Source: Thermodesulfobacteriota bacterium
GTDB taxonomy: Bacteria; Desulfobacterota; Desulfarculia; JACQYL01
DNA: 64,000 bases
Assembly (NCBI GenBank): GCA_963675595.2
Contig: CAXXLZ010000001.1
Span: forward strand, 64,001 to 128,000
Direction of reading: 5' to 3'
Positions 51,519 to 53,059 of this stretch are shown one piece after another. Both the position numbers and the translations under genes were made by a program. The notes beneath the pieces are model-generated. The model saw nothing but the letters and a program-made list of their open reading frames with translations, ran no database searches and had not been told where the DNA came from. Each line of letters starts with the position of its first letter. Position 1 is the stretch's first letter.

Positions 51519-51772
51519 GTAAGCATTCTCCCCGCCCGCCAACCTGCCCACGGAGGAATCCCGTTCTCGGTTGCGACGCGTAAAGCCGGCAACACGCTCA
51601 AAAAGTTTTGGAAGCAACTGTGTTCTTTGTCAACTGAGTTGTTTGTCACTGATTCCTATGAAGCTGTAACACGGCGCTTGCTAGGCGCGGCACGCGTGGG
51701 GCTGCCGCGCGCAAGCACCGCGCCACAGCAGACCACGGCAGCATCGGTTAACCGATGTGATACATAAACCGG

Positions 51773-52741
51773 TCAACTTAATGTGTCTTTGACACCGATT
51801 TCAGGCTGTTGGACGCGCCAATGAGTATTGGTTTTGACCATGCTGTTCAGTATGGTCAGAAGCTTACGCATACAGGCAGTCATAGCCACTTTGTGCGCTT
51901 TTCCAGCTTTAGTAAGCCGTTGGTAGAAGGCTTTGATTACCGGGTTTGAACGGGTGGCGGACAAGGCGGCCATGTGCAATACGGCCCGAATCTGGGCGCG
52001 GCCTCCCCAAATAGAGCGTTTCCCTCGCATCTTCCCGCTGTCACGATTCAGGGGAGCGACTCCCACCAGGGCGGCGATCTGCTTACGGTTCAATGCCCCG
52101 AGTTCGGGTAAGCGGGTCAGCAGAGTCGAGGAGAGAACGTGTCCCACTCCGGGCACACTTTGAAACAGAGCGTCTTTTTCCCGCCAAATGGGAGATGCCC
52201 GAATCGCCTTGCGGAGTTCCCGGTCCAAGTCCTCAAGGCGCTTCTGGAGCCACGAGATATGGGCCTGGATATCCTTGTGCAGAGAGGAGTGAGCGCTTCG
52301 AAGACGGTTCTTCTCGGCGGTCAACATGGTTATGATTTGTCCACGCCGATCGGCCAGAGCAGTCAGCGCTCGCAGCTGGTCGTCCTTCAAAGGCCGAATT
52401 TGCGGCCGGACAGCCTGGGCGAAATGGGCCAGGACTGTGGCGTCTATGCGATCGGTTTTTGCCAGTATTCCTTTGGCCTTGGCAAAATTACGAACATGTC
52501 GTGCATTGACCACGGTCACATTCAACCCGGCTCCGGCCAAGGCGCTCGCCACCGGAGTCTCAAGCCCACCGGTAGCCTCCAAGACGATCATGGAGGGAGG
52601 AAGATTTTTGAGATGGTTGATTAAAGCATCAAAATCGGTTTCATGGTTGGTCATCGACCAGGCTTCCTCGCCGGGAACGACGGCGATTTCAAGCCGGTCC
52701 TTGGAGACATCGATTCCCACGAAACAGGTGATCTCGCCCAT
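51773..52741 (-). CDS. IS110-family DEDD recombinase/transposase (322 aa)
   Basis: GIDVSK, LEATG, KTDRIDA, SVPGVG, RDSGK and ACMRKLL motifs; ATG 52741 with GAGGAG RBS. Confidence 0.95.
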
Positions 52742-52749
52742 GATAACTC

Positions 52750-52937
52750 CTCTCGTACCCAACCTTGCAGATGCGGCCTTAAAAGGCCGGGCAACTGTAC
52801 GGGTTATCTCGAGGAAGGACATGACGGCCCAAGCTTCCAAACGGAGTCCATTTCTCCTGGGGGTCCGGCGGCCTGTCATGTCCGTGACCAACTTTGCGGG
52901 TCATGCCGTCTTCCATTAAGTATGAAAGATGGCATGC
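52750..52937 (-). ncRNA. Predicted IS110 bridge RNA
   Basis: A 5' hairpin (CATGCC...GGCATG), a target loop closed by GGACATGAC/GTCATGTCC and a donor loop closed by CGTAC/GTACG. Internal-loop guides match the target and donor DNA. Exact ends are inferred. Confidence 0.85.
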
Positions 52938-53059
52938 TAAATATACAAGGGGTCCGGGAAACCCTTTTTCAAAAGGTTTCTCCGGATATCCCGTGTATCC
53001 TCACCATATTCTTTCACCGCGGCGTAGCTTGCGTGCGCCGCGTTACTGGGATGGAGTCG

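Follow-up and report, generated by a model that had tools for sequence, protein, structure and literature searches.

The window analysed here (the whole stretch of DNA, 64,000 nucleotides of a Thermodesulfobacteriota genome) carries, between hemC (Porphobil_deam, 2.8e-82) and a cobA/hemD fusion gene (TP_methylase, HEM4), a mobile element of the IS110 family that, judged from its sequence, is an intact and recently active member of the IS110 group. It is made up of a recombinase gene between two non-coding ends and is read on the minus strand, where it opens with TGTATATT at 52947 and closes with ACACAGTTG at 51615 (terminal stretch, CACAGTTG); the coordinates of its features and of the host repeat in which it lies are collected in Table 1. 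Searching the three contigs of the host genome (6.79 Mb) disclosed seven copies, all flanked by CT on both sides and devoid of terminal inverted repeats. Since the similarity between copies ends precisely at CT-TGTAT... and ...CAGTTG-CT in all seven, the boundaries and the two-base core are fixed independently of any RNA model. A preliminary description of this DNA, made from the letters of the window, had proposed an IS621-type system in which a bridge RNA encoded by the element selects a target in a host repeat. When re-read against the window, the CT core and the element ends were confirmed, and all four guides were found where that description had put them and with the sequences it had given, but the end coordinate 52988 that it assigned to the system falls within the hairpin of the flanking repeat, outside the element.

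Table 1. Features of the IS110-group element and of the flanking host repeat (window positions).
Feature	Position	Strand	Remarks
Whole insertion sequence	51615..52947	minus	1333 bp excluding core copies; boundaries from seven genomic copies
Left core dinucleotide CT	52948..52949	minus	found at 7/7 copies
Right core dinucleotide CT	51613..51614	minus	found at 7/7 copies
Non-coding left end, putatively bridge-RNA-encoding	52742..52947	minus	206 nt; fold; zero substitutions across seven copies
-10 box TATATT	52940..52945	minus	left-end bases 3-8; consensus match
5' hairpin (RNA 13-45)	52903..52935	minus	predicted from minimum-free-energy pairs
Second small hairpin (RNA 46-62)	52886..52902	minus	predicted from minimum-free-energy pairs
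Predicted target-binding stem-loop (RNA 65-131)	52817..52883	minus	outer stem GGACAUGAC(A)GGCC / GGCCGUCAUGUCC; inner hairpin GGAG/CUCC
Left target guide CCGGACCCC	52860..52868	minus	equals target left side CCGGACCC plus core C
Right target guide TTTGGAAG (RNA UUUGGAAG)	52834..52841	minus	reverse complement of CTTCCAAA; followed by C
Target-loop handshake base C	52833	minus	pairs with last right-end base G, not with target C
Predicted donor-binding stem-loop (RNA 133-200)	52748..52815	minus	outer UCCUC/GAGGA, basal ACCCG/UGGGU, inner CGGCCU/AGGCCG
Left donor guide ACAGTTGC (RNA ACAGUUGC)	52791..52798	minus	equals right-end tail ACAGTTG plus core C
Right donor guide TGCAAG (UGCAAG)	52764..52769	minus	pairs with CTTGTA via one G-T wobble; followed by G
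Donor-loop handshake base G	52763	minus	pairs with target C immediately left of core
Recombinase gene	51773..52741	minus	322 amino acids plus stop; Pfam and PDB matches; open in 7/7 copies
Non-coding right end	51615..51772	minus	158 nt; long imperfect hairpin (fold -70.8 kcal/mol) and -35 box
-35 box TTGACA	51628..51633	minus	13 nt from right-end tip; consensus match
REP-like host repeat, left half	52950..52990	minus	3' arm of hairpin overlaps left side of target
REP-like host repeat, right half	51540..51612	minus	TCCAAAAC... plus second hairpin

Six of the seven copies are identical over 1335 bases save for one base in one of them. The seventh (L007, C1:352400-353734) carries 15 substitutions, all of them transitions and all within the gene (element positions 314-950), which result in four amino-acid changes and leave both non-coding ends unaltered. 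Gene conversion from a diverged allele could account for this distribution, as could selection acting on the two ends. In the contigs of run X1 the element forms a unitig of its own with a depth of 91.7 as compared to 12-13 in the flanks (about seven times). Near-identical copies were also present in a microbial-mat metagenome and in runs that bear two further organism codes. Besides the complete copies, two solo right-end remnants of about 73-78 nt (L008, C2:1729092-1729169, and L009, C2:734818-734890; 92% and 85% identical, respectively) each finish in CAGTTG-CT where a second repeat family has its target position. Their left break points differ, and we take them to be old partial deletions or failed excisions. 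In addition, 31 nt at C2:476742-476772 (L010) are 90% identical to left-end positions 53-83 (E=6e-4), covering the stem of the target loop and the first part of the left guide, and lie about 90 nt beyond another IS110-type element; either a left-end relic or a match by chance may explain them.

The protein matched both domains of IS110 recombinases, namely PF01548 (DEDD_Tnp_IS110, N-terminal and RuvC-like; residues 8-150, E=2.5e-25, 89.5 bits where the cut-off is 29) and PF02371 (Transposase_20, C-terminal; E=1.4e-18, 67.4 bits where it is 21.3). Among solved structures, it matched the transposases of IS621 (PDB 8wt6; E=4.1e-38, residues 7-305, 134.9 bits over 299 residues) and ISCro4 (PDB 9t56; E=6.3e-38, residues 6-306). 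Residues D11, E55, D97, D100 and S234 align with D11, E60, D102, D105 and S241, the catalytic residues of IS621 (PMC11208158), and are intact in all seven reading frames, the acids standing in GIDxxK, EATG and KTDxxDA motifs and the serine in RDSGK. Similarity searches among 185,579 species genomes yielded 128 relatives, of which the best 80 loci were taken, and even the closest had no more than 59% protein identity; the 90% identity cluster of the recombinase holds five members, none of them named. It is fair to call the element a candidate new orthologue, as had been proposed, although the bridge-RNA class and its targeting of repetitive extragenic palindromic (REP) sequences are already in print (PMC11208160).

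The left end is longer than the right one (206 versus 158 nt) and folds at -80.7 kcal/mol (z = -4.15), a stability reached by none of 200 shuffled sequences. As predicted for a bridge RNA, and as the preliminary description had outlined, the minimum-free-energy structure began with a 5' hairpin and a small second hairpin, after which came two stem-loops, each with an internal loop, that of the target loop being large. The stems GGACAUGAC/GUCAUGUCC and GGAG/CUCC attributed to the target loop were present in the fold, as was the inner hairpin CGGCCU/AGGCCG of the donor loop. To assess conservation, we built a covariance model from the two stem-loops of this element alone (143 nt, 33 pairs) and searched it against 60 loci, one for each distinct relative among the best 80, the other 20 being extra copies in the same genomes. 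At E up to 1 the model returned 60 matches, of which 49 reached E<=0.003, with none in L081 and two each in L051 and L068, and in 57 of the 60 loci the match was on the gene strand and no more than 180 nt upstream of the recombinase match. In L027 the model match was about 140 nt further upstream, and the sole match of L083 was 62 nt upstream (E=0.0069). Within the genome itself, the model matched the left end only across the seven copies. This sets the element apart from the IS1111 group, which has long subterminal inverted repeats and encodes its guide RNA in the right end, although no IS1111-type model was applied to the right end here.

In the aligned relatives, 90.6% of the cells were paired, compared with 30-48% when the partners were slid by 1-3 columns, these percentages being inflated because the alignment was fitted to the model's own structure; compensatory changes were found in 29 of the 33 pairs, and none of 500 shuffles reached any of the measures. 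All 17 pairs of helices 1-4 of the target stem-loop showed compensatory changes and were 88-98% paired. In the donor loop, the basal stem CGTAC/GTACG, which can form in this sequence, was rejected as a conserved helix (124 of 256 cells paired, 48.4%) in favour of the register of the energy fold, ACCCG/UGGGU (243 of 281 cells, 86.5%, with compensatory changes). Part of the ribosome-binding site lies within the outer donor stem.

We then considered the guides. The right target guide matches all six non-core positions of the target, and the left guides, which had been described as equal to the left sides of target and donor, do so and extend to the first core C. In the left target guide this is followed by a C at 52859, which is mismatched with the core T. 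Of 5000 dinucleotide-preserving shuffles of the left end, 38 did as well as the left target guide (9 nt), 121 as well as the right target guide (8 nt), 54 as well as the left donor guide (8 nt) and three as well as both target guides jointly. Taken in this single sequence, the guide matches are only moderately unlikely by chance, and their real weight comes from the relatives.

The relatives share the donor ends CT-TGTAT... and ...ACAGT(T/C)G-CT and have quite different flanks. From 59 plus-strand model matches and the window element we retained the loci with one conserved end motif per boundary and removed duplicates, and so arrived at 30 distinct element-site pairs, the window included. Of its six non-core positions, the right target guide matched on average 4.60 in its own flank and 1.49 in non-cognate flanks. 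On the left side, the longest stretch common to loop and flank averaged 5.93 for cognate and 3.79 for non-cognate pairs. On either measure, the cognate values were reached in none of 5000 permutations. The window element has the best guide match of the 30 (9 nt left, 6/6 right) and conforms to the family register of the right target guide, that is, one G, six variable bases, AG for the core and then C; the last three parts of this register (6 nt, AG and C) were found in all 30. On the donor side, the left guide tracks the right-end variants TTG, TCG, CCG and CTG across relatives with one exception (L063). The wobble position of the right donor guide, which faces an invariant T, is G in a clear majority of relatives and A in a minority, a few being different or unaligned. 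These results show that both the structure and the guides co-vary across the family.

A further correspondence concerns the bases that follow the right guides. In IS621, these handshake bases lie immediately 3' of each right guide and pair with position 7 of the other DNA after the exchange, and handshake bases able to pair with their own DNA block strand exchange (PMC11208158). Here, position 7 is G in the donor and C in the target. The C of the target loop stands opposite G in 29 of 29 relatives, and the base of the donor loop is complementary to the target base in 28 of 29, with two relatives in which both sides have changed (U-A and A-T). Given this complementarity to the partner DNA, the proposal that the two bases pair with the exchanged strand is sound.

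The two ends also carry the halves of what we infer, by consensus match, to be a split sigma-70-type promoter. Only across the junction of a circle would TTGACA stand 17 bp from TATATT (13 nt of the right end, CT and TG), and in the integrated state the flank sequence at the -35 position bears no resemblance to a -35 box. TTGAC(A/T) was found at the same 13-nt distance in the four groups of relatives with a readable right end, and the left ends of relatives carry TATGAT, TATATT or similar sequences at the position of the -10 box. A junction promoter in IS110 elements has already been published (PMC11208160). The right end that carries the -35 box is unusually long for the IS110 group, 158 nt against 15-49 nt from the stop codon to the end motif in the relatives where this motif was found, and its long hairpin may be a terminator or an inserted palindrome.

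Four of the seven copies, including that of the window, are inserted at the same point of one REP-like intergenic repeat, with a hairpin GGGGAAACC...GGTTTCCCC on one side and another, GGTTGC...GCAACC, on the other. The target segment is covered by at least 52 copies of this repeat. A fifth copy is at the equivalent point of a second repeat family and the other two are in unique DNA, so that the claim of a system programmed against a REP-like repeat holds for most copies but not for all. One of the two in unique DNA (L003, C2:1017344-1018678) interrupts a gene encoding a fusion of a GT4 glycosyltransferase and a polysaccharide pyruvyl transferase, dividing the PS_pyruv_trans profile into one part with positions 1-157 and another with positions 202-280. 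Its site matches the right guide at 5/6 and the left guide at only about 5/8 positions, and we regard it as a natural off-target insertion. All seven sites retain CCC-CT plus five or six of the six right-side bases. No free perfect 16-mer target is left in the 6.79-Mb genome, and four repeat copies are perfect except for a CA instead of CT core. Among the relatives, several (L053-L057, L037/L038/L080 and L023/L025) were seen beside or inside palindromes, for example GACCGGCAAGATGCCGGTC directly before CT, GTCAGCTT...AAGCTGAC or CTCCTTGGATAAGGAG spanning the core and the right side, and hairpin-associated targets look general in this clade.

The empty target had been reconstructed by joining the two flanks around one CT. 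This is supported by free paralogous repeats, which hold both halves of the target exactly two bases apart, but an empty hemC-cobA allele was not found among 30 other genomes; the two that belong to the same family are 67-70% identical in DNA sequence, none of the 30 has the repeat at this locus, and the hemC-cobA gap is about 216 bp in G002. We also aligned to the region the contigs of runs X1, X3, X8 and X10; the public runs carrying the element belong to seven studies and were covered as contigs. One contig contained a joint from 51613 to 52955 that skips the element (depth 6, 25 bases on the shorter side). It was considered as an empty allele and rejected, for it has six other letters and is best read as a diverged paralogous repeat.

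We believe, with a probability of about 0.9, that the element is an autonomous insertion sequence of the IS110 group, mobilized by IS621-type RNA-guided recombination. The bridge-RNA reading fits every point that could be tested computationally, i.e., domains, catalytic residues, covariation, guide concordance, handshake and promoter, and we infer from the family that the RNA is produced, that the protein binds it and that it directs recombination. According to this model, excision would join the ends around one CT and bring the two promoter boxes to their 17-bp spacing, and the circle would then transcribe a left-end RNA of about 190 nt. One internal loop of this RNA would pair with both strands of the chromosomal target CCGGACCC-CT-TCCAAA and the second with the circle junction ACAGTTG-CT-TGTA, whereupon the DEDD/Ser recombinase would exchange strands at CT. 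The bases after the right guides (C and G) would pair only with the partner DNA after the exchange and so favour insertion, and the preferred target lies between the two hairpins of the host intergenic repeat.

Several observations weigh against this interpretation. The pair counts depend on an alignment fitted to the model, as described above, and the boundaries of the relatives were set by conserved end motifs, the loci lacking a unique motif being dropped. Both left guides carry a C opposite the core T and cover the first core base only, and relatives vary at the left-guide positions facing that T. The right donor guide does pair with CTTGTA by one wobble, as had been claimed, but its strict Watson-Crick pairing extends over only 4 nt and, taken by itself, lacks significance (reached in 4915 of 5000 shuffles). 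None of the Rfam 15 families fits positions 51300-53300 at E up to 10, where the matches were chance-level ones to miRNA and snoRNA-like families. None of the public runs that carry the element is recorded as RNA, and neither a clean empty allele nor a junction of right to left ends was seen in the contigs of X1, X3, X8 and X10, contigs being unable to reveal rare circles. Moreover, three of the seven sites are non-canonical and match the left guide at only 4-5/8 positions in the family register; because of this, the guide code alone does not fully explain the choice of sites.

One way to account for the poorly matched sites is a different register. The true left target guide would then be the 10-nt CCGGACCCCC, directed to targets CCGGACCCC-CT as in sites 2 and 4, and the REP-like sites would be reached by a one-base slip in the C run. 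With this shift, two of the non-canonical sites fit at 8-9/9 positions left of the core (site 2 at 9/9 and site 4 at 8/9), plus the first core C, and the C run permits either register. In the relatives, however, the base before the inner stem faces the core T (e.g., GUGCCCCU against GTGCCC-CT in L012), which places the REP-like sites in the family register, and four of the seven sites, among them the two pairs whose flanks are identical, agree with it at 8/8 positions plus the core C. We find it distinctly unlikely that the register is wrong.

It could also be argued that the protein reads the site, an IS110 recombinase recognizing the repeat hairpin and a CCC-CT-TCC centre while the apparent guides contribute little. 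Sites 2, 3 and 4 were used despite their left-guide matches of 4-5/8 in the family register, five of the seven sites are in hairpin-bearing repeats, and a 2026 preprint on ISPpu10 reports the target stem-loop as an extra determinant of specificity. Nevertheless, in ISPpu10 the stem-loop adds to base pairing and does not replace it, all seven sites keep 5-6/6 right-side matches, and the guides change with the targets across the 30 elements (0 of 5000 permutations), which would not be expected if the protein read the site; this makes recognition by the protein very improbable. Least credible of all is that the copies are left from a past burst of a system that no longer functions, as the lack of a free perfect target in the genome, the lack of a circle junction in contigs and the two old right-end remnants might suggest, since six copies are identical over 1335 bases save one base, all seven frames are open with intact catalytic residues, the left end is unchanged in every copy, and contigs cannot show rare circles.

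If the element does move by RNA-guided recombination, its specificity may be high. The guides would read 17 target bases (nine left and eight right, overlapping at the first core base), the host-repeat hairpin may be read as well, every perfect site would be filled, and the four CA-core copies would be free only through their core. The C run of the left guide might, in addition, permit two target registers. We consider this combination speculative and rather unlikely to hold in full. If it were true, the repeat family would escape an RNA-guided transposon by mutating two core bases, precisely those around which the guide cannot be reprogrammed without changing the donor too.

Among known systems, the closest parallel is IS621 of Escherichia coli, an element of the same group with which the present one shares both protein domains, the catalytic D, E, D, D and S, the CT core and a left-end RNA with a 5' hairpin and two internal-loop stem-loops, as well as the handshake bases, the junction promoter and the insertion into REP sequences (PMC11208160, PMC11208158). 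In contrast to IS621, whose protein is a distant one, the element described here has a right target guide of 8 nt including the core (a 4-nt pairing is given for wild-type IS621 in PMC11208160), two 5' hairpins, a 158-nt right end and a left-guide C opposite the core T, and is known from its sequence alone. The transposase of ISCro4, compared by protein sequence only, is as close as that of IS621. ISPpu10 and ISPpu9 of Pseudomonas putida are likewise reported to be multi-copy IS110 elements at one position of a host intergenic repeat, the stem-loop of which is immediately 5' of the target, but host and repeat are different and two of the seven copies studied here are outside repeats. Finally, the relatives found in metagenome-assembled genomes (Chloroflexia, Gemmatimonadota, proteobacteria, Dehalococcoidia and others) have the same donor ends, RNA architecture and guide register and differ in protein sequence, targets and the shortness of their right ends.

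The element is, accordingly, a genuine but ordinary addition to a recently described class of RNA-guided recombinases and leaves the knowledge of that class unchanged, the mechanism, the REP targeting and the junction promoter having been published in 2024 and earlier. Bridge recombinases are under development as programmable tools for the insertion, deletion and inversion of DNA, and their natural orthologues vary in activity and specificity. As a candidate for such use, the element has the attractions of being compact (1333 bp and a 322-amino-acid enzyme), evidently of recent activity and provided with a long right target guide, and the reading of its guides, target, donor and handshake bases is unambiguous. 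It also offers, within one genome, a small natural set of on- and off-target data, in which four perfect and three imperfect sites stand beside several near-matches that were not used.

Two observations on the surroundings deserve mention. At 51367-51524 there is a repeat of about 155 nt with inverted ends CCCGTTGAAAAA...TTTTTCAACGG and a strong fold (-72.9 kcal/mol on the minus strand). It has 82 genomic copies of at least 130 nt with a median identity of 86%, had no Rfam match, occurs in two other genera of the same family at 84-91% identity, and could be a miniature inverted-repeat transposable element or a structured RNA. The IS110 DEDD domain gave 20 matches genome-wide, which fall into three groups of 7, 5 and 8 copies. 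As copies of the third group end beside the second repeat family (e.g., C1:344368, C2:1358770 and C2:3700152), it seems that these host repeats serve more than one IS110-type element.

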